The notes beneath the pieces were generated by a model. The model did not search any database. It was not told the DNA's origin and saw nothing but the letters and a program-made list of their open reading frames with translations. Positions 2,024-49,239 of a stretch of 64,000 bases of DNA are shown one piece after another (positions within the stretch are counted from its first letter, which is position 1; every line of letters begins with the position of its first letter). This stretch comes from an uncultured Verrucomicrobiota bacterium (GTDB lineage Bacteria; Verrucomicrobiota; Verrucomicrobiia; Palsa-1439): contig CAZISE010000016.1 in assembly GCA_964541945.1 (NCBI GenBank), positions 20,484 to 84,483 on the forward strand. The letters are read 5' to 3'. Made by a program: the position numbers and the translations under genes.

Positions 2024-2865
2024 TCCGACGGATACCGTCCGTCCTGCTGAAAACGATCAATGGTCGCCTCCACCGGCACAAACGGCGGTGAACACAAAAT
2101 CCAGTCTATTCGACTCCCCTCTCGTTTCCCGTGGAAACCGTGGAAACTGGCTTCGTCGGGCTGGCGTTCGGGATGAAGGTGGCGATAGGTGTCGGTCAAT
2201 TTTGGCCTGTCATTTTCTCCCCCCAAAAGGATGCGGTATTGGGGCGAGTCTTCCGTGCTGTTGAAATCGCCCGTGATGATGACCGGCAGATTCGGCGTCT
2301 GCTCGGCAAGCCACCGGCGCATTTGTCTGGGCGATTCCAAACGCGCCTGTTGGCCCTTGTGGTCCCAGTGCGTGTTCAGCCAGAGAAACACGCGATCGGT
2401 CTTGCGGTCGCGGAGCTTGACCCATGTGACCATGCGGGGACACATGGCATCCCAACCTTTTTCCCCTGGTCGGTCGGGATGTTCGCTCAGCCAGTAATGC
2501 CCCGACGCCAACGTCTCGAATCGGTCGGTCTTGAAAAAAATGGTCATCTGCTCGCCGTTCTTCTGGCCGTCATCGCGCCCGACCCCCATGCGGGTGTAGG
2601 CGGGTAACCGGGCGCTGATGAATTCCGCCTGAAATGCCAGCGTCTCCTGCGTGCCCAACAGATCGGGATCAAACCGACGGATCGCCTCGATGAGAAGATC
2701 TTTGCGTTTCTCCCAACTGTTTTCGCCGTCCGCCGCGGTGCCGTACCGGACGTTGAAACTCATCACCCGCAACGGCGTCACCTCGGCGCCGCGCACGGGC
2801 ACGGCAACAAGCCACGCCGCCAGCGCGTATCCGGCCCATCGTGTCAGTGCGAACAGTTTGTTCAT
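1993..2865 (-). CDS. endonuclease/exonuclease/phosphatase (EEP) family protein, secreted
   Basis: Signal peptide, then LRVMSFNVRYG...GTQE...NTHWDH...TGDFN...SDHFPV, the canonical EEP catalytic motif series. Its 3' end overlaps the convergent 899..2023 gene by 31 nt. Confidence 0.8.
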   Translation of the reverse strand: MNKLFALTRWAGYALAAWLVAVPVRGAEVTPLRVMSFNVRYGTAADGENSWEKRKDLLIEAIRRFDPDLLGTQETLAFQAEFISARLPAYTRMGVGRDDGQKNGEQMTIFFKTDRFETLASGHYWLSEHPDRPGEKGWDAMCPRMVTWVKLRDRKTDRVFLWLNTHWDHKGQQARLESPRQMRRWLAEQTPNLPVIITGDFNSTEDSPQYRILLGGENDRPKLTDTYRHLHPERQPDEASFHGFHGKREGSRIDWILCSPPFVPVEATIDRFQQDGRYPSDHFPVTATLR

Positions 2866-2889
2866 ACGCCTTCGAGCCTCCGAACGGTT

Positions 2890-3765
2890 TTAGGGTAACC
2901 GGTCCATCCAGTGTTTGTCCACGAGGACATCGAGATCGAGGAACACCTTGCGGTTCATGGCGACCTCCAGTTCCTTGCGGGCGAAACTGCCGATGTCCTT
3001 GATCTTGCGGCCGCCCTCGCCGATGAGCATCCGCTGGTGTCGGTCGTCGGTGGTAAGGATGGCGGCCTTGATGTAGAGCAACGGCTCGCCGGATTTGGTC
3101 ACGCGGTCCTCGACTTTCTCCAACTGGACGGTGGCGGTATAGGGGACCTCCTGACTGGTTTTGAGGTAGAGTTTTTCGCGGATCAGTTCGGCAATCCAAA
3201 ATTCGTTGGTGACGTTGGTGACCTGTCCTTCGGGATAGTGCGGCGGCCCGACGGGGAGATGACGCAGAATGGCCCGGATGACAAGTTCCACGTTCGTTCC
3301 CTGCAACGCCGAGACTTCCATGACACTGGCGTAATCGGAGCCACGTTGAAGCCATGCCTCGCGGAAGGGACGGGAGGGCAGATCGAGTTTGTTCAGGACA
3401 AGAATCTTCGGCTGGGTCGCATGGGAGACCAATTCGAGAACCCGCTGGTCTTCGGGGCCAATGGGCCGCGACGGATCCGCCACGTGCACGAGAACATCCA
3501 CGCCTTCCAGGGCATCACGAACCTTGTGATGAAGACTGGCCACGAGTTTGCTGGGCTGGGTCTTGAAAATGCCGGGCGTGTCCACAAAAACAATCTGGCC
3601 TTCGGGACGGGTCACAATGCCGTGATAGGTGTCGCGGGTGGTCTGCGGTTTGGGAGTGACAATGGCAATCTTGGTGCCGACCAGAGCGTTCAACAGGGTG
3701 GACTTACCGACATTGGTGCGCCCCACCAGTACGGCAAAGCCAGACTTGAAATTGGGATTGTCCAT
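2890..3765 (-). CDS. era: GTPase Era
   Basis: G1 GRTNVGKSTLLNALVG, G3 DTPG, G4 NKLD, and a C-terminal KH-like region (IREKLYLKTSQEVPY...). Start reset to ATG 3765 (MDNPNFKSGF); the longer track ORF would run over the divergent gene. Confidence 0.9.
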   Translation of the reverse strand: MDNPNFKSGFAVLVGRTNVGKSTLLNALVGTKIAIVTPKPQTTRDTYHGIVTRPEGQIVFVDTPGIFKTQPSKLVASLHHKVRDALEGVDVLVHVADPSRPIGPEDQRVLELVSHATQPKILVLNKLDLPSRPFREAWLQRGSDYASVMEVSALQGTNVELVIRAILRHLPVGPPHYPEGQVTNVTNEFWIAELIREKLYLKTSQEVPYTATVQLEKVEDRVTKSGEPLLYIKAAILTTDDRHQRMLIGEGGRKIKDIGSFARKELEVAMNRKVFLDLDVLVDKHWMDRLP

Positions 3766-3811
3766 CGCGCCAGAGTCTAATGCGAAGGTTGCATTGGAGA
3801 CAAGATGCTTT

Positions 3812-4720
3812 ATGTTCGCGGACATGAACGACGTGTTGCCAGCCCACCGCCAACATCCGCGCGCGTTCGAGGACTTCAAGTTCGTTTACCCGGTCCTCTC
3901 GCGGCGCAGCGGCGGCATCTCCATCGGATTGAATCTCAACCCCGATCGAAAATGCAACTTCAACTGCATCTATTGCCAGGTGGACCGAACCGCCGCGCCG
4001 GCGATTCGGCGATTTGACCTGACAACCGCCGAAACGGAGCTGCGAACAATGCTGGACATGATGACATCGGGCGCGCTGGCCCGTCACCCGCAGTTTCGCG
4101 ATGTGCCGCCCGAATTGATGCGGTTGAAGGACGTGGCGCTCAGTGGCGACGGGGAACCGACGTTGCTGGCGAATTTTGCCGAGGCGGTCGAAATGGTGGC
4201 GCGAGTCAAACCGCCGGGAGTCAAATTGCTTTTGATCACCGACGCGGCGGGACTGGGGCGGGCGGAAGTCAAACGCGGGCTGACAATCATGGACAAACAC
4301 GAGGGCGAGATTTGGGCCAAACTGGACGCGGGCACGGAACAGTATTTCAAGCTGATTGACCGCGCCAACATCCCCTTTGCCCGCATCCTGCAGAACCTGA
4401 CCGACTGCGCCAAAGCGCGCCCCATCGTCATCCAAAGCATGTTCATGAAGTTATACGGACACGGACCGTCGCCGGAAGAAATTGTCGCCTACTGCGATCG
4501 TCTCCGAGACATTCGGGCTGCCGGCGGACAGATCAAACTGGTACAGATCGGCACCGTGGCGCGAACGCCTCTGGCGATCATCAACGGACGACCCGCCTGG
4601 CACGCCGTAACCGCCCTGTCAGACGCGGAACTCGACGCCATCCGGGATTGCGTGCGGCACCGGACAGAGCTGACGACCGAAAGCTACTACGGCACCCCCA
4701 CCCCGGAAAATCATCGTTGA
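3812..4720 (+). CDS. radical SAM protein, function unknown
   Basis: CNFNCIYC (CxxxCxxC) cluster motif followed by LSGDGEPT. Start reset to ATG 3812 (MFADMNDV). Confidence 0.7.
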   Translation: MFADMNDVLPAHRQHPRAFEDFKFVYPVLSRRSGGISIGLNLNPDRKCNFNCIYCQVDRTAAPAIRRFDLTTAETELRTMLDMMTSGALARHPQFRDVPPELMRLKDVALSGDGEPTLLANFAEAVEMVARVKPPGVKLLLITDAAGLGRAEVKRGLTIMDKHEGEIWAKLDAGTEQYFKLIDRANIPFARILQNLTDCAKARPIVIQSMFMKLYGHGPSPEEIVAYCDRLRDIRAAGGQIKLVQIGTVARTPLAIINGRPAWHAVTALSDAELDAIRDCVRHRTELTTESYYGTPTPENHR

Positions 4721-4782
4721 CGCCGGCGATGTCTTCCGCTACTTTTGCGCCCCCTCAGAGAAAAGAAAAACGAAGGAACTTT

Positions 4783-5100
4783 ATGTACGCAGTCATCAGA
4801 ACAGGCGCCAAACAGTATCGGGTCCAGCCCGGCGACAAAATTGAAGTCGAGCTGCTTCCCGGCGAAAACGGCAAGGAAATCAGCCTTGACGACGTGTTAC
4901 TCGTCGCCGACGGCGACAATGTGACCGTTGGCAAACCGACCGTCCCCGGCGCGCGTGTGACTGCCGAAGTCATCGAGGCCGACAAGGTGGGCAAAAAAGT
5001 CATCGCCTTCAAATTCCGCCGCCGCGAAGGTTACCATCGCAAACGCGGTGTCCGCCCCCACCACACCGTTTTGAAAATCAAAGAAATTGTTGTATCGTAG
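4783..5100 (+). CDS. rplU: 50S ribosomal protein L21
   Basis: [16 protein letters not shown]...VE is the canonical L21 N-terminus. GAAGGA RBS sits upstream of ATG 4783. Confidence 0.95.
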
Positions 5101-5124
5101 CATCCGTAAGAAGGAGTTCCCACC

Positions 5125-5382
5125 ATGGCACATAAAAAAGGACAAGGCAGTTCTCGCAACGGTCGCGATTCCATCAGTAAACGTCTTGGCGTAAAGGCGT
5201 TCGGTGGCGAGTTCGTCTCCGCCGGCAGCATTATCGTTCGCCAGCGCGGCGCCCGCTGGATCGCCGGCGCCAACGTCGGCACAGGCCGCGACTGGACCCT
5301 GTTCGCGCTCAGCGACGGTAAGGTCCGTTTCGACAAAAACGGTCGCCGCGTCAACGTGGACCTCGTTCCCGCAACCACCTAA
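5125..5382 (+). CDS. rpmA: 50S ribosomal protein L27
   Basis: [35 protein letters not shown] is the canonical L27 sequence. Confidence 0.95.
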
Positions 5383-5404
5383 TCCACACAATTCCACATC
5401 TGTC

Positions 5405-5449
5405 TCGGCGCGCGCTTGGACATTTCCGACGCGCGCCGAAACGTTTTTT
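5405..5449 (+). terminator. Rho-independent terminator after rplU-rpmA
   Basis: Perfect 10-bp stem TCGGCGCGCG (5405-5414) / CGCGCGCCGA (5430-5439), 15-nt loop, then AACG and a T6 run (5444-5449). Confidence 0.75.
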
Positions 5450-5576
5450 GGAGAACCGGCGGACACCGCCATTCCTTTATAGAGCCAGAAAAAACGTCCG
5501 CAAACCATTGTCCGGTTCAGAATTACCCGGTATTCCGCGCTTGATTTCAACGCCGAACTTGCCAAATACTGTTCCC

Positions 5577-6512
5577 ATGAAAACACTGCTGACCTTCCTT
5601 ATCGTCGTCTCACTCGCACTCCCCACCTTGGCGGTGGAAAAAGTCACCCTCAAATTCGTCAGTGCCGACAGCGAGGAAACTGCCGGCGAAGACGGACGCG
5701 GCGCCAACGCCGTGGATGGCAATCCTGAAACCATCTGGCACACCCAGTGGCAGGACGCCAACCCGGCGCATCCACACGAGATCGTTCTCAAACTCGATCC
5801 TCCCTGCAAAATCATCGGCCTCACCTACCTCCCGCGACAGGGCGAGATCGAAAACGGCGACATCAAAGAATACGAAATCTACGTCAGCACCGACGGCAAA
5901 GACTTCGGCAAACCGATCAAAAAAGGGGAATTTCGCCGTGGCAAGGACAAGAAAGCCGTCTTCTTCCCGGCCACCCAGTGCGCGTACATCAAGCTGAAAG
6001 CCCTTTCGGAAATCAATGACCAGAACTGGACCTCTGCCGCCGAGATCGGCGTCGTACAGGAAGGCGAGAAAATCGCCATCATGCCAACGTTGACCGTGGA
6101 AAAGGTTGACAGCGAAGAAACCACCGGCGAAGACGGTAAGGGTGCCAACGCCGTGGACGGTAAACCGGAGACCTTCTGGCACACCCAGTGGCAGGACGCC
6201 AGTCCCGCCTGTCCGCACGAGATTATCATCAAACTCGAACCCGCCACCAAAATCAAAGGATTCACCTACCTGCCCCGCCAGGACGAGACCGCCAATGGCA
6301 CCATCAAAGATTACGAGTTCTACGTCAGCACCGACGGCAAAGACTTCGGCAAACCGGTGGCCAAGGGCACCTTCGAGAATAACAAGGAGAAGAAGACCGT
6401 TCTGTTCGACGCCGTCAACGCCGGCTACATCAAGTTGAGAGCGCTCAGCGAGGTCAACGGCGAAGCTTGGACCTCCGCCGCCGAAATCAGCGTTGTCCCC
6501 GCCGAGCAATAA
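5577..6512 (+). CDS. secreted protein with two tandem discoidin (F5/8 type C)-like carbohydrate-binding domains
   Basis: Signal peptide MKTLLTFLIVVSLALPTLA. Two ~150-aa copies of ...GANAVDG.PET.WHTQWQDA.P..PHEI...L.....I.G.TYLPRQ....NG.IK.YE.YVSTDGKDFGKP... Confidence 0.75.
   Translation: MKTLLTFLIVVSLALPTLAVEKVTLKFVSADSEETAGEDGRGANAVDGNPETIWHTQWQDANPAHPHEIVLKLDPPCKIIGLTYLPRQGEIENGDIKEYEIYVSTDGKDFGKPIKKGEFRRGKDKKAVFFPATQCAYIKLKALSEINDQNWTSAAEIGVVQEGEKIAIMPTLTVEKVDSEETTGEDGKGANAVDGKPETFWHTQWQDASPACPHEIIIKLEPATKIKGFTYLPRQDETANGTIKDYEFYVSTDGKDFGKPVAKGTFENNKEKKTVLFDAVNAGYIKLRALSEVNGEAWTSAAEISVVPAEQ
5634..6509. repeat. intragenic tandem duplication, two ~440-460 nt units
   Basis: Unit 1 starts at GTGGAAAAAGTC (5634) and unit 2 at GTGGAAAAGGTT (6096). 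There are identical runs of 38 nt (5878-5915 = 6319-6356) and 27 nt (TCTGGCACACCCAGTGGCAGGACGCCA in both units). Confidence 0.85.
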
Positions 6513-6614
6513 CATCGCGCGGCCGTCTCACCACGACGGTGGTTGCCGCGACAGGGATACGACGGCTGGTTTTGACGACGACACGCGACAGCAACGGGAA
6601 TGGAGTGCCCCGGT

Positions 6615-8042
6615 TTACAGGGACCATCCTTCGCGGTACGGTTGGCGGACAAAAGCGTTAGCTTCCTTGTCGTTGGTAACCTCCATGTGCTCGCCGTCCC
6701 AGAGCAATCGGCGATTGGGGAATCGGACGGCGAGGTTGCCCATCAACACCATCTCCGAGAGCGGCCCGGCATAATCGAAGTTCGAGCAGGCCGGTTCACG
6801 GTCTTTGCGCCCGGAAAAATCGTTGCGGAATCCTGGTATGGCACCGGCCTTGCAGGCGCGGAGCCAATCTTTCTCGTGGCCGCTCTCGCCGCCGGGGATG
6901 CGGGGCAGATAGGGCGCGGGGCGTCGAAATTCCTTCATTTTCTTTTCGGGAATCAGGCGTGGGGCTTTGCCGTAACAGCCGCACATCAGTTTGCCCTTGG
7001 TGCCGATGAACAACACGCCGCCATCGTCGTCGCCCATGCGGCGGCCTTCTTCCAGTTCTTCGGGTCGCGGCGGCATCAGGCCGCCATCCCACCATGTCAA
7101 GGTGACCGCTGGCATCCGGTCGCGTTCGGGGAATTTGTAGCGGATGATGGTGGATCGCGGGAACGTCTCGTTTTTCGGCTCGGTTTTTTTCCAGAAACCC
7201 TCCCAGTAGGTGGAGATGTTACCCTCGACGCTGACGGGGTATTTTAGTTTTAACGAGCAAAACACGCAATCGAGCAGGTGGCAACCGAGGTCGCCGAGGG
7301 CGCCGGTGCCGAAATCCCACCAGGCCCGCCATTTCTGCGGGTGGTAGGCGGGATGATACGGGCGCCACGGCGCGGGGCCAATCCACAAATCCCAGTCCAA
7401 TGTCGCCGGCACCGGTGGCGTGTCTTTGGGGCGCTCGACCTCGATACCCTGGGGCCAGACGGGACGATTGGTCCAAGCGTGGACTTCATGCACGTCGCCG
7501 AGAACGCCGCTCCAGAGCCACTCGCAAATCAGGCGCACCCCGTCGCCGGAGCGCCCCTGGTTACCCATTTGCGTGACGACCTTGTAGCGGCGGGCTGCCT
7601 CGGTCAGGGCGCGCGCTTCCCAGACCGAGTGAGCGATGGGTTTCTGGACATAGACGTGTTTGCCTGCTCTCATGCAGGCCATGGCAATAACAGCGTGGGT
7701 GTGGTCGGGAGTGGCGATCACCACCGCGTCAATGTCCTTCTGTCGGTCGAGCATTTGGCGGAAGTCGGTGTAAACCTTTGCTTTCGGGTATTCCTGAAAG
7801 GTTTTGGCGGCGTAGTCGTGGTCCACGTCGCAGAGCGCGACAATGTTGTGGCCGGCTTCGGCGCATCGTTTCAGGTTGTTTTTCCCCATCCCGCCGATGC
7901 CGATGCCGGCGATGTTGAGCCGCTCGCTGGCCGGGGGTTGGCCGTTGGCGCCGAGCACGTGGCCCGGCAGAATCTGTGCCGCGGCCACTGCGGCGAGACC
8001 GGTTTTCAGAAAAGCGCGACGACTGGTAACGAACTTGTTCAT
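6615..8042 (-). CDS. Gfo/Idh/MocA family oxidoreductase with twin-arginine signal
   Basis: Start reset to ATG 8042 (MNKFVTSRRAFLKTGLAAVAAA, a TAT motif). Rossmann motif IAGIGIGGMG. Paralogous over its whole length to the next gene. Confidence 0.8.
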   Translation of the reverse strand: MNKFVTSRRAFLKTGLAAVAAAQILPGHVLGANGQPPASERLNIAGIGIGGMGKNNLKRCAEAGHNIVALCDVDHDYAAKTFQEYPKAKVYTDFRQMLDRQKDIDAVVIATPDHTHAVIAMACMRAGKHVYVQKPIAHSVWEARALTEAARRYKVVTQMGNQGRSGDGVRLICEWLWSGVLGDVHEVHAWTNRPVWPQGIEVERPKDTPPVPATLDWDLWIGPAPWRPYHPAYHPQKWRAWWDFGTGALGDLGCHLLDCVFCSLKLKYPVSVEGNISTYWEGFWKKTEPKNETFPRSTIIRYKFPERDRMPAVTLTWWDGGLMPPRPEELEEGRRMGDDDGGVLFIGTKGKLMCGCYGKAPRLIPEKKMKEFRRPAPYLPRIPGGESGHEKDWLRACKAGAIPGFRNDFSGRKDREPACSNFDYAGPLSEMVLMGNLAVRFPNRRLLWDGEHMEVTNDKEANAFVRQPYREGWSL

Positions 8043-8061
8043 GGCAATCTCCTCGAATGGG

Positions 8062-9435
8062 TTACAGGGTCCATCCTTCACGATAGGGTTGTTGGACGAA
8101 CCGGTTGGCGGATTCGACGTTGGTGACGCGCATTCGGACGGCATCCCATTCGATGCGCCGGCCGACGCGAATGGCGATGTTGCCGAGCAGCACGGCTCCG
8201 GTCAGCCGCTCGGCCCAATCAAAATGGCAACCGGCCTTTTCGCCGCCCCGGATGGCTTCCATCCATTCCACGTACACGCCGCCCCGGCGGCGAAGGGTTT
8301 TGGGGACACTCTCGAACTTTTTCGCGCGATCGGCCGACAGAATCGTCGGGCCGAGCATTTTGCCCTCGTCGCCGAGATAGAGCACTCCCTGATCCGGCAA
8401 CGGTTTTCCCAGTTCTGGCGGCGCAGGCGGTTTCAATCCGCCGTCGTACCAGACCAGGCGTGTGGGCGGCATTCCGTCGCGGGCGGGGAAATCGTAGGTG
8501 ACGATGGAAGCCAGCGGCGCGGTTTCCTCAAACACGCGGGTGGCCGTGGCTTCGACGGCGGTGGGGTGTTCCAGGTTCAAAGCGCGGAAGGGGGTGTTGA
8601 AATGGTGGCACCCCATGTCGCCGAGGGCGCCGGTGCCGAAATCCCACCAGCCGCGGAAGTTCCACGGGTGATAGATGCCTTTGGAGTGCGGTTTTTTGCC
8701 GCGATTGGCGGCAATCTGTTGTAACGGCAGATCGCCTTCTGTCCATTCGTTTTTGAACGGGCGCATTGGTGCCGGTCCAATCCACAAATCCCAGTCCAAC
8801 GTCGCCGGTACCGGGTCCTGTCCTGCCGGCCGCGTCATGCCCTGCGGCCACAACGGGCGGTCGGTCCAGATATGTACCTCGCGCACCGGACCGATGGCGC
8901 CGGCGGCGATCAACTCGCAGGTCCGGCAAGCGGCGTCGCTGGTGTTGGGCGAGGCCGTCACCTGTGTGGCAACGCCGGCGGCCCGCGCGGTCGTCACCAC
9001 GGCGCGACATTCGGCGAGGGTGCGTGTCAGCGGTTTGACGCAGCAGACATGTTTTTTTCGTCGCAGGGCCGCGAGCGTGATGACAGCGTGGGTGTGGTCG
9101 GGCGTGCCGCAGTACACGGCGTCAATTCGCTCGCTCTCGGCTTGGAGCATTTCACGGTAATCACGGTAACGGCGCGCCTGTGGCCAACGGTCGTAGGCTT
9201 TTTTTGCGTACAGGTCATCCACATCGCAGAGCGCGGCAATGCGGAATCCGGCTTCGACGCAGGATTTGAGTTGCCCGAACCCGACGCCGCCGACACCGAT
9301 GCCTGCGAGGTTGACGGTTTCGCTGGGGGGCGTTTGGCCGTTCAATCCCAGCACGAATCCCGGTACGATCTGCGCCGTGGCCATGGCGGCGAGACTGGTC
9401 TTCAAGAATCGGCGGCGACTGGTCATCCGGCTCAT
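8062..9435 (-). CDS. Gfo/Idh/MocA family oxidoreductase with twin-arginine signal (paralog)
   Basis: Start reset to ATG 9435, preceded by AAGGAA (MSRMTSRRRFLKTSLAAMATA). LAGIGVGGVG Rossmann motif. Shares blocks (WDLWIGPAP, WWDFGTGALGD.GCH) with 6615..8042. Confidence 0.8.
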   Translation of the reverse strand: MSRMTSRRRFLKTSLAAMATAQIVPGFVLGLNGQTPPSETVNLAGIGVGGVGFGQLKSCVEAGFRIAALCDVDDLYAKKAYDRWPQARRYRDYREMLQAESERIDAVYCGTPDHTHAVITLAALRRKKHVCCVKPLTRTLAECRAVVTTARAAGVATQVTASPNTSDAACRTCELIAAGAIGPVREVHIWTDRPLWPQGMTRPAGQDPVPATLDWDLWIGPAPMRPFKNEWTEGDLPLQQIAANRGKKPHSKGIYHPWNFRGWWDFGTGALGDMGCHHFNTPFRALNLEHPTAVEATATRVFEETAPLASIVTYDFPARDGMPPTRLVWYDGGLKPPAPPELGKPLPDQGVLYLGDEGKMLGPTILSADRAKKFESVPKTLRRRGGVYVEWMEAIRGGEKAGCHFDWAERLTGAVLLGNIAIRVGRRIEWDAVRMRVTNVESANRFVQQPYREGWTL

Positions 9436-9449
9436 GCGATTTCCTTTCG

Positions 9450-10874
9450 CTAGTCCAGCCCGCCCATGTCGGCGGGCCAATCGTATTTCAGCGGCGGCGG
9501 ACATTTCTTGTCGGTCCGGAAACAGAGCGCGGGTAATCCCGCGCCGTTGACGAGGTTGGCTCCGGCCACATCATGCCAGGCAAACCGCACCTGGGTGGGG
9601 GTGGGCACCGCCTCGCTCCAGACCAGGACGGAATCCGGGCCTGCGATTTCGGCTTTTGCTGTGTGATAGACGTTGTCGGAGCCGGCCACTTCAAAGAAAG
9701 TCAGCGGTTTGCCGTTGGATGATTTGAGGCCGCCGTGGGCGTGGTCGAAGGTGATGCGCACTTTGTTGCCTTCGATGGAGTGGGCGCGGTAGACCGGTCC
9801 GTGGCAGACGATGTTGGTCATGCCATAGACGTTGTGCAACGCCAGTCGGGCCAGCCGTTCGCCGACGGGCTGTTTGTCGAGCGGGTGAGTATTGTCCTTG
9901 CGTCCGTAATCGCAGGTAAGCGCCATCCCGGAATGGGGGATGTCGAGCGCCCGTTGCATGGCCTCGCTCATCAAGGGGCGGCCAGCGCCCGGTCCCTTGT
10001 AATCGCGCGGCGCCAGTTGGGTGAAGTAGAACGGGAACGGTTGGCCGCCCCAGGCCTCGCGCCAGCCGCGGACGAGCGTCCGCAGCATCTCGTCGTACAC
10101 CGCGGCTTCGCCCACGTTGGATTCGCCCTGATACCAGATGACGCCGCGGATGGCGAACGGCGTCAATGGCGCGATCATGCCGTTGTAGAGGTGCGACAGG
10201 CCTCCGCCAAATTTCTTGTATTGTTCGCTGACGGCGTATTTACCGTCGCGGTACAGCGGTTGTTGGGCGCCATCGCGCGTCCACTGTTGGATGGCCGAGC
10301 CGCCCACGGAACTGGCGATGAGTCCGATGGGTACCTTGAGTTTTTCCTGCAAGGCGACGCCAAAATAATACGCCACCGCAGAGAATCGTCCTGACGATTC
10401 CGGGCCGCACACAGCCCATTTTGCCTTGATACTGTCCTGCGGGGTTGGCTGCACGGAGCGCGGCACCAACAGCAGGCGGATGGTCGGGTGAGCCGATTGT
10501 GCCACGATCTCTTTGCCGTGGCGTGTTGTTTGCAGTGTCATCTCCATGTTGGACTGGCCCGACGCCAACCAGACCTCGCCGACCAACACGTCGGCCAGAG
10601 TTGTCGCTCCAATCCGCAAGGGCCGGCCCTCGGCGCAGGCCGGCATCGGATCGAGTGTGACCCGCCATTTGCCGTGGGCGTCGGCGGTCGCGGTTTTTGT
10701 CTGGCCAGCGAATTCGACGAGCGCTTTTTCGCCCGGCGAGGCGGTTCCCCAGACGGGGATCGGTTGGTCTCGTTGCAGAACCATGTGATCGCTGAACACG
10801 GAGGCCGGTTTCACTTCCGCCTGCGCCGCGCCGACCAGCGCCAGGCCCATCAGAATCGCCAAGAAGAATTTCAT
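9450..10874 (-). CDS. sialate O-acetylesterase (SASA/DUF303-type SGNH esterase), secreted
   Basis: Signal peptide, then VFSDHMVLQRD.PIPVWG...GEVWLASGQSNM, the typical family N-terminus with the GQSNM catalytic block. Confidence 0.8.
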   Translation of the reverse strand: MKFFLAILMGLALVGAAQAEVKPASVFSDHMVLQRDQPIPVWGTASPGEKALVEFAGQTKTATADAHGKWRVTLDPMPACAEGRPLRIGATTLADVLVGEVWLASGQSNMEMTLQTTRHGKEIVAQSAHPTIRLLLVPRSVQPTPQDSIKAKWAVCGPESSGRFSAVAYYFGVALQEKLKVPIGLIASSVGGSAIQQWTRDGAQQPLYRDGKYAVSEQYKKFGGGLSHLYNGMIAPLTPFAIRGVIWYQGESNVGEAAVYDEMLRTLVRGWREAWGGQPFPFYFTQLAPRDYKGPGAGRPLMSEAMQRALDIPHSGMALTCDYGRKDNTHPLDKQPVGERLARLALHNVYGMTNIVCHGPVYRAHSIEGNKVRITFDHAHGGLKSSNGKPLTFFEVAGSDNVYHTAKAEIAGPDSVLVWSEAVPTPTQVRFAWHDVAGANLVNGAGLPALCFRTDKKCPPPLKYDWPADMGGLD

Positions 10875-24134: not shown

Positions 24135-24842
24135 TCAATCAAAGAAGCGATAGCGGAAGATGAACCAGAGGGCGGCAAGGCCGTCTTTCCAATTGATTTT
24201 TTTGCCTTCGGTGTAATCGCGGCCGGAGTAGCTAATGGGCGTTTCGTAAAAGCGGTAGCGGCGTCGGGCCAGTTTGGCGGTCAGTTCCGGTTCGATACCG
24301 AAACGTTCCGCGGTCAGGGTCAGCCCCTCCAAGCAGGAACGTTTGAAGACCTTGTAACCGGTCTCCATGTCGGTAAGGTTGAGATTGCAGACCATGTTGG
24401 ACAACAAAGTGAGGAACCGGTTGGCAACGTAGTGCCAGAACAACAACACGCGATGCGGTCCGCCGAGGAACCGCGAGCCGTACACCACGTCCGCTCGCCC
24501 GTCCAGAAGCGGTTTCAACAACAGCGGGTAATCGGATGGGTCGTATTCGAGGTCGGCATCTTGAATCAGCAGAATGTCGCCGGTGGCGTGCTCGATGGCG
24601 GTACGGACGGCGGCGCCCTTGCCGCGGTTGAACGAGTGGGAGAAGACCTTCAGATCGCCGTCGCGGGAGAGTTTTTGCAAAATCTCGCTGGTGCCGTCGG
24701 TGGAAGCGTCGTCCACGAGGATCAATTCTTTTTCGAGGCCGCCGGTATCGGCGGCGCGGACGCGGCGGATGATTTCCTCGACGGTACGCGCTTCGTTGAA
24801 GACCGGGATCAGGATGGAGATTTTGCGAAAATCGGAAGTCAT
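24135..24842 (-). CDS. family 2 glycosyltransferase (polyprenol-phosphate sugar synthase-like)
   Basis: ISILIPVFNE, LILVDDASTDGT, NRGKGAA, LIQDADLEYDP. Start reset to ATG 24842; the track ORF is a 166-aa upstream over-extension. Confidence 0.85.
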   Translation of the reverse strand: MTSDFRKISILIPVFNEARTVEEIIRRVRAADTGGLEKELILVDDASTDGTSEILQKLSRDGDLKVFSHSFNRGKGAAVRTAIEHATGDILLIQDADLEYDPSDYPLLLKPLLDGRADVVYGSRFLGGPHRVLLFWHYVANRFLTLLSNMVCNLNLTDMETGYKVFKRSCLEGLTLTAERFGIEPELTAKLARRRYRFYETPISYSGRDYTEGKKINWKDGLAALWFIFRYRFFD

Positions 24843-25420
24843 GCGCGGCGAGTATAGGGGGTGGAGGAAAATTTTTCCAGTGGCAATGACACGTGAAAAT
24901 AGCTGCTTTTGGGTGGTTGTTCGGCTTTCGCCGCTTGTTTTCGTTTCTTCCCAATCGCTCGTCCGTTGGTTTCGTACCACCCCGGCAGATGTGGCCCATA
25001 GTGCACGCGCCAGCCAACGTCCGTCCCAATGTTCGCAGACTTTGACGCGGCTTTTGGCAAAACTCCACCGCGCGCTCTGCGGCGCAATCGGTAGCCACAC
25101 GCGCCGCCATCGTGTGTTCGTGTTGGATACAGAAAAACGGCGTCCCGATCCAGATGCGCCGCACGGACAAAGGCGTCGCCCGGCTGCGTCGGTGTTTCGG
25201 CCCAGTGCCGCCGATGCCACGGCAAAAACACGTCGCCGATGTAGCGGGGTTGGCTGTCGTCCACGTAGAGCATCCTCCCGCGCAACGGATCGGTGAAATG
25301 CGTAACGTTGAAGCCCTGGTGTGGTTCGCAGTAAAGCCACAAGACTTGTTCTGCGCTGGCCAGCAGCAACTTCTTGAGGCTCACATCCTCAACCTGCCCA
25401 GTGGACGTTTCACCTGTCAT
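24839..25420 (-). CDS. hypothetical protein, translationally coupled to the GT2 gene
   Basis: 193-aa ORF with an ATG start. Its TGA overlaps the GT2 ATG (ATGA at 24839-24842). No family recognised. Confidence 0.5.
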   Translation of the reverse strand: MTGETSTGQVEDVSLKKLLLASAEQVLWLYCEPHQGFNVTHFTDPLRGRMLYVDDSQPRYIGDVFLPWHRRHWAETPTQPGDAFVRAAHLDRDAVFLYPTRTHDGGACGYRLRRRARGGVLPKAASKSANIGTDVGWRVHYGPHLPGWYETNGRAIGKKRKQAAKAEQPPKSSYFHVSLPLEKFSSTPYTRRA

Positions 25421-25475: not shown

Positions 25476-25503
25476 CGTCACGGGTTCGTTACACCTTTGT
25501 GAC
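25476..25503 (+). promoter_or_regulatory. candidate Pho-box-like hexamer array upstream of the DUF47-PiT genes (weak)
   Basis: CGTCAC (25476), CGTTAC (25487) and TGTGAC (25498) are phased at exactly 11 bp. The array abuts the RBS (25504-25510), which is atypically close to the start codon. Confidence 0.3.
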
Positions 25504-25516
25504 AAGGAGAAGCGTT

Positions 25517-28980: not shown

Positions 28981-29020
28981 GCAACGCCTTCCATGTTACA
29001 AAACCGTGACAACACCGATC

Positions 29021-34484: not shown

Positions 34485-35165
34485 TCACGGAAGATCGGCG
34501 AAACGATAGCCGACACCGCGAACGGTCTCGATCAGTTCGCCGGCTTTGCCGAGTTTCTCGCGCAGCCGGCGAACGTGTGTGTCCACGGTGCGCGTGTCAA
34601 TGTCGCCTTCGTATCCCCACACGTCGGACAACAGGGTGTCGCGGGTTTGGACCCGTCCGCGGCGTTGCATCAAGGTGGAAAGGAGCTTGAATTCCGTGGC
34701 TGTCAGCTCGACCGGCTTGTTTTTGATGCTGGTCTGATGTTTGCCAATGTCCACCAGCAGATCACCGCACTTGAGGATTTCCGCCACCGCCGGGCTGGCG
34801 CGTCCGAGGAGTTTTTTCACACGCAACACCAGTTCGCGCGGGCTGAATGGTTTGGTCACATAATCGTCGGCGCCAAGTTCGAGGCCCAACACGCGGTCCA
34901 CTTCCTCGGCTTTGGCTGTCAACATCACAATCGGAATGTGCGCGGTCCTGGGATCGGCCTTGAGACGTTTGCAAACCTCGGTCCCATCCATTTCCGGCAA
35001 CATCAAATCAAGCACCAGCGCCGCCGGCAACAGATCGCGGGCTTTCGCCAGCCCGCTCAGGCCGTCGCGCGCCGTGGCGGTGTGATACCCGGCCTTGCGC
35101 AGGTGAAACACGACCAGGTCCAGCACATCGGATTCGTCTTCGACGATGAGAATGGTCTCTGACAT
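34485..35165 (-). CDS. phoB: phosphate regulon response regulator (OmpR/PhoB family)
   Basis: ILIVEDE, LDLMLPEMDG, ADDYVTKPF, and a winged-helix tail (VWGY...DTRTVDTHVRRLREKLG). Start reset to ATG 35165. Confidence 0.9.
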   Translation of the reverse strand: MSETILIVEDESDVLDLVVFHLRKAGYHTATARDGLSGLAKARDLLPAALVLDLMLPEMDGTEVCKRLKADPRTAHIPIVMLTAKAEEVDRVLGLELGADDYVTKPFSPRELVLRVKKLLGRASPAVAEILKCGDLLVDIGKHQTSIKNKPVELTATEFKLLSTLMQRRGRVQTRDTLLSDVWGYEGDIDTRTVDTHVRRLREKLGKAGELIETVRGVGYRFADLP

Positions 35166-35175: not shown

Positions 35176-35838
35176 TTACTCGGTTCGGTGGCGGATGTCT
35201 CGCGCTTCGTAAAGATAAACCACTTCTTCGGCAATGTTGGTGGCGTGGTCGGCGATGCGTTCGAGGTTGTGCGAGACGCTCATCAGGCTCAGGGCGCGAG
35301 TGATGGTTTGCGGGGCTTCGATCATGAAACTGGTCAGCTCGCGATGGAGTTGACGATTGAGCGCGTCCACTTCTTCGTCGCGGCGAATGACCTCGCGGGC
35401 CAGGTCGGATTTGCCGTACACGAAGGCATCCAGCGCGTCGTTGACCATGCCGCGGGCCAGGTCGGCCATGCGCGGGATGTCAATCAACGGTTTCAGTTGC
35501 GGTTCGGCGTTCAATTCCCTGGCGCGATGGGCGATGTTGACGGCCTGATCGCCGATGCGCTCCAACTCGGCGGCGATTTTCATGGACATCAGGATGAATC
35601 GAAGGTCTTTCGCGGCGGGCTGGCGCAGGGCAAGCAGTTTGACCACCCGGTCGTCAATCTCCATTTCCAAATGATCAATCGGCTCGTCGGCGGCATCCGC
35701 TTTGTCCGCCAGCGCGTTGTCCCGTTGGACCAACGCCTTCAATGCCTCCGCCACGCTCTGTTCGGCCAGGGCCGACATGCGCAACAACGCCTGCTTCAGT
35801 TCTTCCAGTTCCAGGTCAAAATGTCGTTCCATGATCAA
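35176..35838 (-). CDS. phoU: phosphate signalling complex protein PhoU
   Basis: 220 aa with two PhoU repeats ([15 protein letters not shown]; [16 protein letters not shown]). The start overlaps the pstB stop (ATGA 35835-35838). Confidence 0.9.
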
Positions 35839-36704
35839 CCAAACCTTCCGGTCACATAGTCTTCTGTCTGTTTGTTGCCGGGATTGGTAAAGATTTTTTC
35901 TGTCGTATCGTACTCGATGAGCCGTCCGAGATAGAAGAATGCCGTGTAATCGCTGACGCGAGCGGCCTGTTGCATGTTGTGCGTCACGATAATCACGCTG
36001 TACAGCCCTTTCAACTGGTAGATTAACTCTTCGACCTTACCGGTGGCAATGGGATCGAGCGCGCTGCACGGCTCGTCCATCAACAAGACCTCCGGTTCCG
36101 CCGCAATGGCTCGGGCAATGCAAAGCCGTTGCTGCTGGCCGCCGGACATTTGCAACGCCGACTCATGCAGACGGTCTTTTACCTCGTCCCAGAGCGCGGC
36201 GCGCTGGAGGCTGCGTTCCACCACCTCATCGAGCACGCTTTTGCGGCGTTCGCCGTCAATGCGCAACGGGTAAATCACGTTCTCGTAAATGCTCATCGGG
36301 AAGGGATTGGTTTTCTGAAAGACCATCCCTGTGCGTTTCCGCAACTCGATTACATCCACGTCGCGCCCGAAGATGGATTGCCCGTTGAGCCGCATGTCGC
36401 CCGAATAACGCACGCCTTCGATCAGGTCATTGAGACGGTTAATGCTGCGGATCAGAGTGGATTTGCCGCAGCCGCTCGGCCCGATCAACGCGGTGACCTT
36501 GCCGCGCGGAAACTTCAGGTTCAGGTCAAACAATGCCTGTTTCGCCCCATACCAGAGGTTGAACTGCTCCACCTCCAATACGATTTCCTCGTTGGCCAGC
36601 GACAACGCCGCGCTTGCCTTGCCGGCCACGGCGGGGGCAACCGTCCGCGGCGCGGCATGTGTCGGCGTTTCAACTGGCCGTTGTGTTTCCATGAGAGCCA
36701 TCAT
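35835..36704 (-). CDS. pstB: phosphate ABC transporter ATP-binding protein PstB (canonical; likely serves the long-form Pst system)
   Basis: [68 protein letters not shown] 36704 chosen (GGAG 7 nt upstream). Confidence 0.9.
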
Positions 36705-36758
36705 GTGATTCTCCAACAGGCACACTCGTCTCCTGCGCCATCACCATGCCGGTGCCAT

Positions 36759-36786
36759 GTGACAAACAGGTGACAACCATGTGACA
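36759..36786 (-). promoter_or_regulatory. Pho box: three perfect TGTCAC hexamers at 11-bp phasing, upstream of pstB-phoU-phoB
   Basis: The plus strand reads GTGACA at 36759, 36770 and 36781. In the sense of the minus-strand genes this is TGTCACatggtTGTCACctgttTGTCAC, ending 54 nt before ATG 36704. It matches the enterobacterial PhoB site core (C)TGTCA(T/C), which repeats every 11 bp. Confidence 0.7.
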
Positions 36787-37110
36787 TCGGCGCAAAACGA
36801 CCGACGGAATCGCGTCGCCCGGCCACACGCCCGGCCGGGAAAAAACCATTGTCCACCGCGATGTTGATGGTGGCGGATGTTTTCGTCGCTCGCCTGCCGT
36901 CGTCAACCGCCTGTTGTCCGGCGTCGGCAAAACTGCTTTCGTTGTTTCGTCAGTGGCAAAACGATTGCCCAATACCACTCGTTCTCGATGCCCGTCGTGA
37001 ACGGGTTGACAGCAGATCGTTGTGTCGTTGGGATGAAGACGACCGCAATGGCGCCTGACGTTTTCATGTCATTTCGTCTGTTTCCCGGTTCTATTGCGCT
37101 TCGTGGCGGC

Positions 37111-38775
37111 TCAGAACTGGGCGCCCACGTAGCGTTTTTTCAGCCGGTTACGAATGTAAATGGCGCTGAGATTCAACAGCGCAATCAGCAAAATCAACAG
37201 CAGCGTCGTCGTAAACACCATCGGCTTGGCCGCCTCGCTGTTGGGCGATTGGAACCCGACATCGTAGATGTGGAAGCCGAGGTGCATAAAGCTGCGGTTC
37301 AGATGCAGGAACGGGAAATGACCGTCCACCGGCAGTTCCGGCGCGAGTTTGACCACGCCGGTAATCATCAACGGCGCCACCTCGCCGGCGCCACGAGCCA
37401 TGGCCAGGATCAAGCCGGTCATCACACCGGGCATGGCGCGCGGCAACACGATGCGCTTGATCGTCTGCCATTTACTGGCGCCGCAGGCGTAACTGCCTTC
37501 GCGCATGGAACTCGGCACGGCGGCCAGCGCTTCTTCCGTCGCCACGATCACCACCGGCACGGTCAACAACGCCAGCGTCAGCGATGCCCAGATAATACCG
37601 CCGGTGCCGTAGGTCGGCGACGGCAGGCGTTCGGGAAAAAACAGCGCGTCCATCGTGCCGCCAACCACGTAGCAGAAGAAACCGAGGCCGAACACGCCAA
37701 AGACGATGCTCGGCACGCCGGCGAGGTTGTTGACGGCGATGCGGACGGCGCTGAGCAACGGTCCTTGTTTGGCGTATTCGCGCAAATAGAGCGCGGCGAT
37801 CACGCCGAACGGCGCGACCGAAAACGACATGATCAGGGTCATCATCACCGTTCCGAAAATGGCCGGCAACACGCCACCCTCGGTGTTGGCTTCGCGCGGT
37901 TCGCTGGTCAGAAACTCCCGCCACCGGCTCAGGTACACCCCGGCGCGCTGGAGAAAATTGAGATCGTTGGCGGGATAGGCGCGGACGATCTCGGAAAACT
38001 TCAACTCTTTCGTCCGCCCGCCGACTTCCCGCACTTCGACGGTGTAACGGGCGTCCTCAGCGCGGATGGCAGCCACTTTCGCGCCGAGCTTGTCGTATTC
38101 CGCGCGCAACGCTTCCTCGCGCTGTTTCGCCTCGACCACGGCGCGGGTATATTCGGGAGAGTCTTTACCGTGTTTGAGTTCGACCTTGCGAACGGTGAGT
38201 CGCAACTGTTCGAGGGTGCGGTTGACCTCGCCGATTTCCGTTTTCTCGATGCGTTTGATCCGACGGAACCGGTCACGTGCCGGCTCGTGCAGTTGGGCAA
38301 ACGAGTTCGTCGTGGGTCTGCCGTCCACGCGGATTTCTTTGATGAAGCCGACGAACACACCCCATTCCTGCCGCTCAAACAGCCAGGCGCCGGTCGGGGT
38401 TTCGCGCCGGGCAATGTCGTGGTCGTTGATCCATTTGAAGTGGTCGCCGTAGAGGTCAAAGTTGCCGGTGCGCAACAGGCGACGGCGGGCGACACGGCCT
38501 TCGCGCTGGAAGGCCTCGGTGCGGGCAATTTCTCCGAGAAACGTCTGACCATCGCGTGTGGTGATCTTGACGATCCGTTTCGGCCAGAAGGTGAGCGTAC
38601 CCTTCACCACCACCAACAACAGCAGCCCGGCAATCATTAACGTCGCCACGGCCAGCCCGCCGCCGGTCAGCCAGATCATGGGTTCGCCACGCGCTCGCCG
38701 GGAGGTGCGCCGTTCGCGGCGCATCTTGGCCGGCGGGGACGGGTTGGTAAAGATGCCGCGAATCGCGAGGCTCAT
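37111..38775 (-). CDS. pstA: long-form phosphate ABC transporter permease PstA (554 aa)
   Basis: The C-terminal ~280 aa are a PstA permease core (NNLAGVPSIVFGVFGLG, TEEALAAVPSSMREGSYACGASKWQTI). The N-terminal ~270 aa are one TM helix plus a soluble coiled-coil-rich insertion. ATG 38775 chosen (GGAGG 8 nt upstream). Confidence 0.85.
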   Translation of the reverse strand: MSLAIRGIFTNPSPPAKMRRERRTSRRARGEPMIWLTGGGLAVATLMIAGLLLLVVVKGTLTFWPKRIVKITTRDGQTFLGEIARTEAFQREGRVARRRLLRTGNFDLYGDHFKWINDHDIARRETPTGAWLFERQEWGVFVGFIKEIRVDGRPTTNSFAQLHEPARDRFRRIKRIEKTEIGEVNRTLEQLRLTVRKVELKHGKDSPEYTRAVVEAKQREEALRAEYDKLGAKVAAIRAEDARYTVEVREVGGRTKELKFSEIVRAYPANDLNFLQRAGVYLSRWREFLTSEPREANTEGGVLPAIFGTVMMTLIMSFSVAPFGVIAALYLREYAKQGPLLSAVRIAVNNLAGVPSIVFGVFGLGFFCYVVGGTMDALFFPERLPSPTYGTGGIIWASLTLALLTVPVVIVATEEALAAVPSSMREGSYACGASKWQTIKRIVLPRAMPGVMTGLILAMARGAGEVAPLMITGVVKLAPELPVDGHFPFLHLNRSFMHLGFHIYDVGFQSPNSEAAKPMVFTTTLLLILLIALLNLSAIYIRNRLKKRYVGAQF

Positions 38776-38785
38776 ACAAACGGCC

Positions 38786-38930
38786 TCCAAATCCGAATGC
38801 CGAAGCGCAAACCACGAAACAAATCCGAATGCCCAAAATCCCAAGTCCCAAACAACCGCACCGCCGCCCCGTTTCGGCATTCGAATTTCGCGCTTGTTTC
38901 GCGCTTCGGATTTCGTGCTGCGAATTTCAT
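38786..38930. repeat. repeat-rich intercistronic element between long pstC and long pstA
   Basis: Direct copies of AAATCCGAATGCC at 38789-38801 and 38821-38833. Inverted copies at GGCATTCGAATTT (38876-38888), CTTCGGATTT (38904-38913) and GCGAATTT (38920-38927). CCGAAGCGC (38800-38808) is complementary to GCGCTTCGG (38901-38909). Together these can form a long imperfect hairpin around a C-rich ~40-nt loop. Confidence 0.6.
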
Positions 38931-42414: not shown

Positions 42415-42453
42415 GTTACGAATTGGTGTCAACGTGGTTTCGGTTGGGTGAAT
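42415..42453 (-). promoter_or_regulatory. candidate Pho-box-like phased hexamers upstream of the second pstS
   Basis: In sense orientation: ATTCAC, CGAAAC, TGACAC, CGTAAC, with starts exactly 11 nt apart (plus-strand 42448-42453, 42437-42442, 42426-42431, 42415-42420). The last ends 36 nt before ATG 42379. Matches to TGTCAC are 4/6, 3/6, 5/6 and 4/6. Confidence 0.4.
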
Positions 42454-42461
42454 TTTGGGTG

Positions 42462-42495
42462 CTTGCCCCGGCGGCGTCGTGGTCGCCGGGGCAAG
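42462..42495 (-). terminator. GC-rich hairpin just after the porin gene (terminator/attenuator candidate; no U-tract)
   Basis: Perfect 12-bp inverted repeat CTTGCCCCGGCG (42462-42473) / CGCCGGGGCAAG (42484-42495) with a 10-nt loop, 17 nt downstream of the porin stop. It is not followed by a T-run in the minus sense. Confidence 0.5.
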
Positions 42496-42511
42496 AGGTC
42501 AGGAGGACACC

Positions 42512-43987: not shown

Positions 43988-44026
43988 CGTGACAGCCAAA
44001 GGACGGAATTGTTACGAAATCGTGAA
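43988..44026 (-). promoter_or_regulatory. candidate Pho-box-like phased hexamers upstream of the porin gene
   Basis: Plus strand: GTGACA (43988), AGGACG (43999), GTTACG (44010), GTGAAG (44021). In sense order this is CTTCAC-CGTAAC-CGTCCT-TGTCAC at 11-bp phasing, ending 87 nt before ATG 43900. Confidence 0.45.
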
Positions 44027-44077
44027 GATGCGAACGCGCTCGCGGGACGCCAAGGGCAACGAAAAGGCGCGAAACAG

Positions 44078-48034: not shown

Positions 48035-48423
48035 GGTTCCTGTCCTGCCCGGCGCAAGAGTACAACCACGCGCGCCAACAGTTCCCGCATCTCAAATGGT
48101 TTTGTCAGGTAATCATCCGCCCCCACCTGAAAACCTTCAAGTTTGTTTTCTGTCGTGGCCATGGCCGTCAACATCAACACCGGGATTTGGCGCAACGGAC
48201 TGGCCTTCAACAGCCGACAAACCTCCAGCCCGTTCATCTGCGGCATCATGCGATCCAGAATCACCAGCGCCGGCTTGCGTTCAAACACGGCATTGAGCGC
48301 GGCGACGCCATTGCGGACAATGATCGCGGCATAGCCCCGACGCCTCAGATGATAGGCTATCAAACGGGCCGTATCGGCTTCGTCCTCGGCCACGAGAACC
48401 AACGGCGCGTTCGCGTTGCTCAT
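48031..48423 (-). CDS. single-domain response regulator (CheY-like receiver)
   Basis: VLVAEDE, ILDRMMPQMNG, LTAM, ADDYLTKPF. 130 aa with no output domain. Start reset to ATG 48423, which overlaps the upstream stop (ATGA 48420-48423). Confidence 0.85.
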   Translation of the reverse strand: MSNANAPLVLVAEDEADTARLIAYHLRRRGYAAIIVRNGVAALNAVFERKPALVILDRMMPQMNGLEVCRLLKASPLRQIPVLMLTAMATTENKLEGFQVGADDYLTKPFEMRELLARVVVLLRRAGQEP

Positions 48424-49175
48424 GACACCATTCGCTCCGGCTGCAAAACGGCTGTCGTACGATGAGTTTGCCATCGAATCAGTTCGATCCGACCATCGTA
48501 ATCCTCCACCAGCGCCGAACGGCTTTCCACCCAATCGCCGCAATTGTAGTAGGAAATCCCGCGGATGATCGCCACCGCCGGGGTGTGAATGTGTCCGCAA
48601 ATCACCCCGTCCGCATGATGCAACTCGGCATAGCGTGCCAGCGCGTCTTGAAACCGCCCGATGAAACTGACCGCCTCTTTCACATAGGCGCTGAGCGACC
48701 AATAGCCGAGTCCCAACGTGTTGCGAATGAAATTCAGCGGGAGATTCGCCTTCAACAGCGCCATGTAACCCAAATCTCCCAGATGCGCCAGCCATTTGGC
48801 ATGCGTGATCACCGTGTCCAACTCGTGGCCGTGCATCACCAATAACCGCCGCCCATCGGCGGCGGTGTAGAGGTCGCGCGGCTTGATGACGACATTTCCA
48901 TATGCGCCAACAAAATGCGCGCAAAACTCGTCGTGGTTACCCGGAACCCAGATCACCTCCGTCCCTTTCCGCGCTTTGCGCAGAAGCTTCTGGATCACGT
49001 CATTGTGCGATTGCGGCCAGTACCGGTTCCGCCGCAAATGCCACAAATCCACAATGTCACCCACCAAATACAACCGCTCGAACTCGTTGAGCTTCAGAAA
49101 CTCCAGCACCCCGGCGGCATCGCAATGGCGCGTGCCCAGATGCAGATCGGATATCCATGCCGTTTTGCAGTTCAT
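48420..49175 (-). CDS. LpxH-like calcineurin-type metallophosphoesterase
   Basis: ISDLHLG, LVGDIVD, PGNHDE, MHGHE, GHIH, GDW: the full metallophosphoesterase motif series, in the arrangement seen in the UDP-2,3-diacylglucosamine-hydrolase-like family. Confidence 0.8.
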   Translation of the reverse strand: MNCKTAWISDLHLGTRHCDAAGVLEFLKLNEFERLYLVGDIVDLWHLRRNRYWPQSHNDVIQKLLRKARKGTEVIWVPGNHDEFCAHFVGAYGNVVIKPRDLYTAADGRRLLVMHGHELDTVITHAKWLAHLGDLGYMALLKANLPLNFIRNTLGLGYWSLSAYVKEAVSFIGRFQDALARYAELHHADGVICGHIHTPAVAIIRGISYYNCGDWVESRSALVEDYDGRIELIRWQTHRTTAVLQPERMVS

Positions 49176-49211: not shown

Positions 49212-49239
49212 TTGACAATCTTGTTACAGACTCGTGAAC
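49212..49239 (-). promoter_or_regulatory. candidate Pho-box-like phased hexamers upstream of the 8-gene operon
   Basis: In sense orientation: GTTCAC (49239-49234), TGTAAC (49228-49223), TGTCAA (49217-49212) at 11-bp phasing, ending 36 nt before ATG 49175. Caveat: on the plus strand 49212-49217 reads TTGACA and could instead be a -35 box for the divergent Rieske gene. Confidence 0.4.

Follow-up and report, generated by a model that had tools for sequence, protein, structure and literature searches.

PHO boxes are built from direct head-to-tail units of 11 nt, each with 7 conserved and 4 less conserved positions (PMC4415409). In the E. coli pstS promoter (NC_000913.3) the same 7+4 unit, CTGTCAT/C, is present in four or five repeats, and TATTTT stands 10 nt past the last of them, CTGTCAC. 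Alphaproteobacteria such as Sinorhizobium meliloti have pstSCAB-phoU-phoB operons (PMC4415409, citing Yuan et al. 2006), and the Pho boxes of SphR in cyanobacteria have been predicted computationally as three tandem 8-bp repeats (PMC1906773). A literature search found no verrucomicrobial Pho-box study. We know of no Pho operator described so far in Verrucomicrobiota.

Here we describe a cluster of three phased TGTCAC hexamers immediately upstream of pstB in an uncultured Verrucomicrobiota bacterium. Judged from its sequence, the cluster is probably a PhoB-type operator (PHO boxes) of a phosphate-starvation-activated promoter that lies within a porin-pstSCA-pstB-phoU-phoB gene string. A PHO-box promoter is of a known kind and would bring no new mechanism; its position is uncommon.

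Organisation of the phosphate super-locus

The whole stretch of DNA that was analysed, referred to as the window, is 64,000 nt long and contains a phosphate super-locus. On the minus strand this runs from the polyphosphate operon through porin, pstS, pstC, pstA, a spacer, pstB, phoU and phoB to a PhoU-LMWP fusion gene, a second pstSCA with two pstB genes, and phoR. Past phoR, on the plus strand, is a DUF47-PiT gene pair, divergent from a gene for a GT2 glycosyltransferase.

The genes that flank the spacer are those named in an earlier note made from the sequence, and Pfam and NCBIfam agree on the identity of all four. Long-form pstA (37111–38880, minus strand) encodes 589 aa as its longest ORF; its stop codon is at 37113–37111 and the C-terminus, ending in GAQF, is common to relatives. 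A long-form pstC of 771 aa lies upstream in the same gene string. The product of pstB (35835–36704, minus strand; 289 aa) matches TIGR00972 with 396 bits (cut-off 343), and has an N-terminal extension of ∼40 aa that is kept in close relatives; its N-terminus, MMALME, aligns with the PstB N-termini of relatives. The phoU gene (35176–35838, minus strand) overlaps the pstB stop codon, and is followed by the gene for a PhoB-type response regulator, phoB (34485–35165, minus strand; 226 aa from the ATG at 35165). At the other end of pstA, the PstA proteins of relatives align only from residue ∼35–65 onward of the 589-aa ORF (window 38786–38930), so translation of pstA may really begin further downstream, leaving a pstC-pstA spacer of more than 46 nt.

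The best NCBIfam match of the regulator is PhoB (TIGR02154, 1.6e-74), with a score of 250 bits that is below the equivalog cut-off of 296.2. The kinase scores 400.6 with PnpS, for which the cut-off is 400, and 331 with phoR_proteo, for which it is 334. The DNA-binding domain of the regulator, whose recognition helix reads RTVDTHVRRLR, has E. coli PhoB among its best solved-structure matches; the corresponding helix of E. coli PhoB we take to be RTVDVHIRRLR. The phoU/pst gene context supports the assignment of the pair as PhoR and PhoB.

Between the pstA stop codon (37111) and the pstB ATG (36704) is a 406-nt spacer (36705–37110), as the earlier note had reported. The Logan assembly of run SRR12976788, made independently, matches the locus at 100% identity along 4969 nt, and its gene caller places no gene in the pstA-pstB spacer. 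The spacer is the longest junction in the locus. Its surroundings had been described as overlaps and short spacers throughout, a description that does not fit the porin-pstS (132 nt), pstS-pstC (150 nt) and phoB-next gene (78 nt) junctions. The PstB core lies at a distance of 532 nt from the pstA stop, compared with at most 369 nt in 140 other long-form junctions sampled from many phyla; where this distance is longer among the sampled junctions, the additional length is coding. Phased TGTMA repeats are found in none of these 140 junctions, and we reject on that ground the idea that a pstB-proximal box is a general trait of long-form pst operons.

The operator upstream of pstB

The core of the candidate PhoB-type operator (36759–36786, minus strand) comprises three TGTCAC hexamers, at 36786–36781, 36775–36770 and 36764–36759, whose start-to-start spacing is 11 and 11 nt with no mismatches. 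On the minus strand 36786–36759 reads TGTCACatggtTGTCACctgttTGTCAC, and as heptamers the repeats are ATGTCAC, TTGTCAC and TTGTCAC. Exactly 54 nt (36758–36705) separate the last hexamer from the pstB ATG at 36704, and the earlier description of three identical hexamers at exact 11-bp spacing, ending at this distance from the gene, is thus borne out. A weak fourth repeat, TTTTGC (36792–36797, minus strand), which is CTTTGC in two related genomes (G005 and G027), lies 11 bp 5′ of the first hexamer. We infer that it is a putative PhoB half-site; the four repeats would suit two PhoB dimers. By the published definition (PMC4415409), a PHO box requires at least two direct head-to-tail units of 11 nt with 7 conserved and 4 less conserved positions, and here three perfect units and one weak unit are found at 11-nt spacing.

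Downstream of the operator, a candidate −10 hexamer, CATGGT (36743–36748, minus strand), begins exactly 10 nt past the last TGTCAC; its resemblance to TATAAT is weak. No sigma-70-type promoter is called at the operator by a consensus scan. Since an activator-dependent promoter is expected to fail such a scan, the absent call proves neither side. A ribosome-binding site, GGAG (36711–36714, minus strand), is placed 6 nt 5′ of the pstB ATG. A BLAST search of E. coli genomes with the pstB box, at E up to 10, gave no match.

Such a cluster is not expected by chance. With up to one mismatch allowed, TGTCAC-N5-TGTCAC matches four times in the window where 0.26 matches would be expected; none of 100 shuffles reaches four. 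Exact matches in the 3.95-Mb genome are confined to two overlapping places, both in the pstB operator, and the reversed-pattern control gives no match in the whole genome. The triple is the highest-scoring phased triple of the genome, with 18/18 positions, the runner-up scoring 16, and from the frequency of TGTCAC (1458 sites on both strands) a perfect triple is calculated to occur ∼5e-5 times per genome. Sites with at most one mismatch number eight genome-wide, four of them inside the phosphate super-locus.

Related sites at other phosphate genes

As a further mark of PHO boxes, related half-sites recur upstream of several phosphate genes of the genome. Within the same super-locus, YGTMAC repeats with 11-bp phasing precede porin, pstS, phoR, the GT2/PiT pair and the polyphosphate operon. 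The pstS box, TGACACcaattCGTAAC (42415–42431, minus strand), takes the form TGTAAC-N5-CGTAAC in relatives and is kept in five related genomes, about 30–60 nt 5′ of the ATG in each; four of the five have TGTAAC, TGACAC or AGTAAC followed by N5-CGTAAC, and in G005 the second hexamer is CGACAC. Porin is preceded by four degenerate phased hexamers, CTTCAC, CGTAAC, CGTCCT and TGTCAC (43989–44027, minus strand), and another Pho box, TGTCACggtttTGTAAC (28995–29011, minus strand), follows the second pstB pair, ahead of phoR. Phased TGTCAC, TGTAAC and CGTGAC hexamers lie between the divergent GT2 glycosyltransferase and DUF47-PiT genes (25477–25504, minus strand), and GTTCAC, TGTAAC and TGTCAA (49212–49239, minus strand) stand before the polyphosphate operon, which is led by a metallophosphoesterase gene.

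The porin-pstS spacer has features of its own (window 42440–42500). A GC hairpin of 9–10 bp, CCCCGGCG...CGCCGGGG, comes directly after the porin stop codon and is followed by the pstS box. The hairpin and the conserved box together indicate that porin and pstS are probably separate units too.

Two of the genes behind phased Pho-type repeats encode the GT2 glycosyltransferase (24135–25340, minus strand) and an LpxH/PlcP-like metallophosphoesterase (48420–49175, minus strand), a pairing reminiscent of the PlcP-Agt pathway of lipid remodelling under phosphate starvation. In another genus of the family a Pho-type motif precedes genes for MGDG-synthase-like glycosyltransferases, which also fits lipid remodelling under phosphate starvation. 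Elsewhere in the genome under study an exact TGTCACaaattTGTAAC (L240:837–853, G000:C37) is located 103 nt 5′ of a gene (957–10037) for a protein of 3026 aa, with six lamin-tail domains in addition to Malectin, PA14 and CotH domains; to judge from these features it may be a surface protein induced by phosphate starvation.

The same word is also seen in a quite different setting. A conserved TGTCACGG(A/T)TTTGTCAC / TGTCACGGATTTGTCAC stands past the 3′ end of a tRNA gene and ahead of a gene for a tyrosine integrase of ∼407 aa in at least seven related genomes (L038, L040, L046, L049, L055, L056 and L057, around position 1500 in each; integrase identified by Pfam Phage_integrase), where an integrative element may have it as an arm-type site or for regulation. 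A Pho-box word by itself therefore does not identify a Pho site. We accordingly rejected counting every TGTCAC-N5-TGTMAC match in relatives as a Pho site, and set the recurrent tRNA/integrase subset aside.

Conservation in related genomes

The pstB of this long-form system is present in seven genomes of the order, including the genome under study (G000). The earlier note had named absence of the motif from orthologous loci as evidence against a promoter; the operator is homologous and in register in three of the seven loci, and the other four lack both spacer and box. It reads TTTTGC-TGTCAC-TGTCAC-TGTCAC in G000, CTTTGC-CGTAAC-TGTCAC-TGTCAC in G005 and CTTTGC-CGTAAC-TGTCAC-CGTCAC in G027, with CATGGT, TAGGAT and CACTTT, respectively, as the hexamer 10 nt downstream. 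Common to the three are the weak upstream yTTTGC and an xAxxxT hexamer that starts exactly 10 nt past the last repeat; among these downstream hexamers only the A at position 2 and the T at position 6 are invariant, and the match to TATAAT is weak. Homologues are found for positions ∼315–364 of the 406-nt spacer only.

In the four loci without box and spacer (G008, G012, G015 and G026) the pstA-pstB gap is 13–33 nt. One of them, G008, is the sister of G000 in the PstA tree, with 98/98 support. The absence of the box from G008 and three others shows the putative promoter to be dispensable and lineage-variable. The long-form Pst system itself is carried by six further genera of the family (G008, G005, G027, G012, G015 and G026), and a long-form Pst query against three genomes of the same genus (G001, G002 and G003) gives only short-form PstA matches of ∼52% identity; this patchy distribution suggests gain and loss, or transfer.

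In G027 pstSCA ends on contig C18 (L230) with no pstB behind it, and pstB-phoU-phoB is found on contig C8 (L233), behind an unrelated gene and the operator, the triple box being about 75–100 nt 5′ of pstB. As the detached unit cannot be reached by read-through from pstSCA, the boxes are its only plausible route of expression. In G005 the operator precedes pstB-phoU only.

The remainder of the spacer

The non-conserved remainder of the spacer, ∼313–314 nt (36798–37110, minus strand), is unique to this genome and is probably functionless filler. The earlier note had left ∼320 nt upstream of the box without an assigned function, and no sign of function was found in them; its suggestion of a structure search for a conserved RNA yielded only chance matches in Rfam, a fold z-score of +0.72 and no homologues on which covariation could be assessed. 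The Rfam search extended to E values of 10, and z-scores of +0.72, +0.69 and +0.07 indicate no unusual fold. We reject a conserved RNA or sRNA, given that there is no Rfam match and that folding is no better than in shuffles. A single copy of the spacer is present in the genome, with no homologue in 45 family genomes, and its remainder has none in the orthologous loci either; a repeated or mobile element is rejected because of the single copy, the lack of inverted terminal repeats and the absence from all 45 genomes.

Coding relics were considered as well. No ORF or open frame of the spacer, on either strand, matches Pfam at E up to 10. The one ATG-started sense ORF, of 54 aa (37067–36906), has no protein homologue that we could find, and a decayed gene is rejected on these two grounds. 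A resemblance of 'NPF...IEN' to the Q-loop region of PstB, together with short blastn matches to pstB of relatives, is not significant (E ≥0.27) when tested against the three PstB paralogues of the genome. On the plus strand, 36918–36933 is a 16-nt word coding for (P)GVGKT that several ATPase genes elsewhere in the genome share, letter for letter, in their P-loop codons. These are ClpB-, F1-beta- and Lon-like, with no wider similarity, and the antisense 'SGVGKT' 16-mer is rejected as a P-loop relic because the ATPases that it matches are unrelated; it is probably a chance occurrence.

Two hairpins lie upstream of the operator (36802–36839, minus strand), one with an 8-bp GC stem (36839–36818) and the other with a 5-bp stem and GTCGTTTTGC (36817–36802). 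They are no better than shuffles (z = 0.07) and could at most act as a weak attenuator of read-through from pstSCA. A terminator after pstA was rejected, as the candidates are weak and terminator-like matches in the locus occur at the chance rate.

Alternative explanations

The main alternative to a promoter is that the cluster binds PhoB and has no promoter activity, being a relic, decoy or titration site that arose by rearrangement between pstA and pstB, with the unit expressed by read-through from pstS or porin. We consider this unlikely. The pstA-pstB junction is evolutionarily unstable, four of the seven orthologous loci manage without the box, the −10 candidate is weak, and many PhoB sites in E. 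coli are transcriptionally inert (PMC10294691). The inert E. coli sites, however, are weak, intragenic and unconserved, whereas the pstB operator is intergenic and the strongest site of its genome, and the operator and the xAxxxT hexamer at +10 nt are kept in register in three genomes. In G027 the operator is the sole upstream element of the detached pstB-phoU-phoB, where pstSCA read-through is impossible. The same genome tells against a roadblock or attenuator, a very improbable reading by which tandem PhoB∼P and the upstream hairpins would reduce pstSCA read-through and so lower the level of PstB, PhoU and PhoB, with no initiation at the site, for G027 has no upstream pst transcript to block. 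Hairpins do lie 15–50 nt upstream of the boxes, and the binding protein and the ATPase and regulators are plausibly needed in unequal amounts, but the hairpins are no more stable than shuffled sequence, terminator-like matches are at the chance rate, and E. coli PhoB has no roadblock effect at intragenic sites (PMC10294691).

That the repeats are bound by some other protein, a different OmpR-family regulator or a recombinase at an arm-type site, and have no role in phosphate metabolism seems to us scarcely credible. It could draw on the recurrence of TGTCACGGATTTGTCAC between tRNA and tyrosine-integrase genes in at least seven related genomes and on the score of the regulator below the PhoB equivalog cut-off. 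Against this, the operator is found exclusively among phosphate genes in G000, G005 and G027, the same half-site family stands 5′ of pstS in five genomes, and neither an integrase nor a tRNA gene is near the pstB operator. An additional functional element in the unique 5′ part of the spacer, whether a small RNA, the 54-aa peptide (37067–36906) or a decayed gene, would be compatible with the promoter and is quite improbable. The spacer is unusually long compared with the 140 other junctions, and holds both the ATG-started sense ORF and, on the opposite strand, the P-loop-coding word; yet it has no homologue in relatives, no Rfam match, a fold z-score of +0.72, no Pfam match at E = 10, no protein homologue and no significant similarity to the PstB paralogues, and the independent gene caller leaves it empty.

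Proposed role of the operator

Taken together, the motif, the lack of other exact copies in the genome, the related repeats at phosphate genes, the conservation and geometry of the site and the detached unit in G027 support in silico the reading of the cluster as a PhoB-type promoter. The earlier note had proposed such a promoter for pstB-phoU-phoB, and geometry, recurrence, conservation and the G027 arrangement all favour that proposal. PhoB binding, the start site and the extent of the transcript at the pstB operator are what we infer on this basis.

Under low phosphate, PhoR would phosphorylate the PhoB-type regulator encoded two genes downstream, and PhoB∼P dimers would bind the 11-bp-phased repeats head-to-tail, occupying all four in a pattern of two strong proximal pairs and one weak distal repeat. 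The bound repeats would replace a −35 element and bring RNA polymerase to the weak candidate −10, CATGGT, 10 nt downstream of the operator, so that transcription would start ∼30 nt 5′ of the pstB ATG. The genes for the ATPase (pstB), the negative regulator (phoU) and phoB would then form a transcription unit separable from pstSCA, combining positive autoregulation of PhoB with built-in negative feedback, and would be independent of pstS and the permeases, whose expression needs differ greatly. As the 78-nt spacer between phoB and the next gene has no convincing terminator, transcription could continue into the PhoU-LMWP gene and the second Pst system. What separates pstA from the operator, ∼314 nt, would be a lineage-specific, non-functional spacer, or at most a weak attenuator.

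It is possible, and we offer it tentatively, that pstB-phoU(-phoB) constitutes a signalling cassette in its own right, autoregulated by PhoB and carrying the strongest Pho operator of the genome, and that this cassette can be fused to (G008), spaced from (G000) or detached from (G027) the long-form pstSCA. If so, the ATPase would be regulated primarily with the signalling proteins and not with the transporter, and the cassette may serve both Pst systems of the super-locus.

For this uncultured Verrucomicrobiota lineage, the predicted Pho operator can now be defined at the sequence level as YGTMAC with 11-bp phasing, and a first putative regulon list comprises porin, two Pst systems, PiT, phoR, glycosyltransferases of the lipid-remodelling type and the polyphosphate operon. 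A pst operon would appear to be transcriptionally splittable at the pstA-pstB boundary, with the ATPase, PhoU and PhoB as a feedback unit of their own, a split that would be useful to consider when phosphate signalling is annotated or modelled in environmental genomes.

Comparison with known systems

The PHO boxes of E. coli pstS, phoA and phoBR resemble the present operator in their 7+4 direct repeats at 11-bp phasing, several in tandem, and in the half-site, CTGTCAT/C there and TTGTCAC here. In both, the last repeat comes 10 nt before a −10-like hexamer, a weak candidate in our locus, and phoB is autoregulated, putatively so in our locus. The TATTTT of the E. coli pstS promoter is reportedly the −10 (Makino et al. 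1988). The differences lie mainly in arrangement: the E. coli boxes are upstream of pstS or phoB, whereas the operator described here is between pstA and pstB, phoB follows phoU within one unit, and a separate box precedes phoR. The genome, that of an uncultured organism, is also GC-rich, and the spacers between its repeats are not AT-rich.

The Alphaproteobacterial pstSCAB-phoU-phoB operons are alike in having phoB downstream of pstB-phoU and in the self-induction of PhoB, putative in our locus, through a pst-linked Pho box. There one Pho box, ahead of pstS, governs the entire operon, whereas here a second, stronger operator precedes pstB, and in G027 the unit is detached altogether. Initiation inside the pst operon would not be without parallel, as Spira and colleagues reportedly described in 2010 PhoB-independent internal promoters of the E. 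coli pst operon, within coding sequence. Internal initiation there supplies the distal genes, as it would here; what sets our locus apart is that a dedicated spacer carries a complete PHO-box operator. The SphR boxes of cyanobacteria have a different half-site, CTTAACCT, and belong to another regulator lineage, but like the pstB operator they comprise three tandem repeats at 11-bp phasing, which are taken as the functional unit, and cyanobacterial pst clusters are likewise predicted to contain sub-transcriptional units with boxes of their own (PMC1906773).
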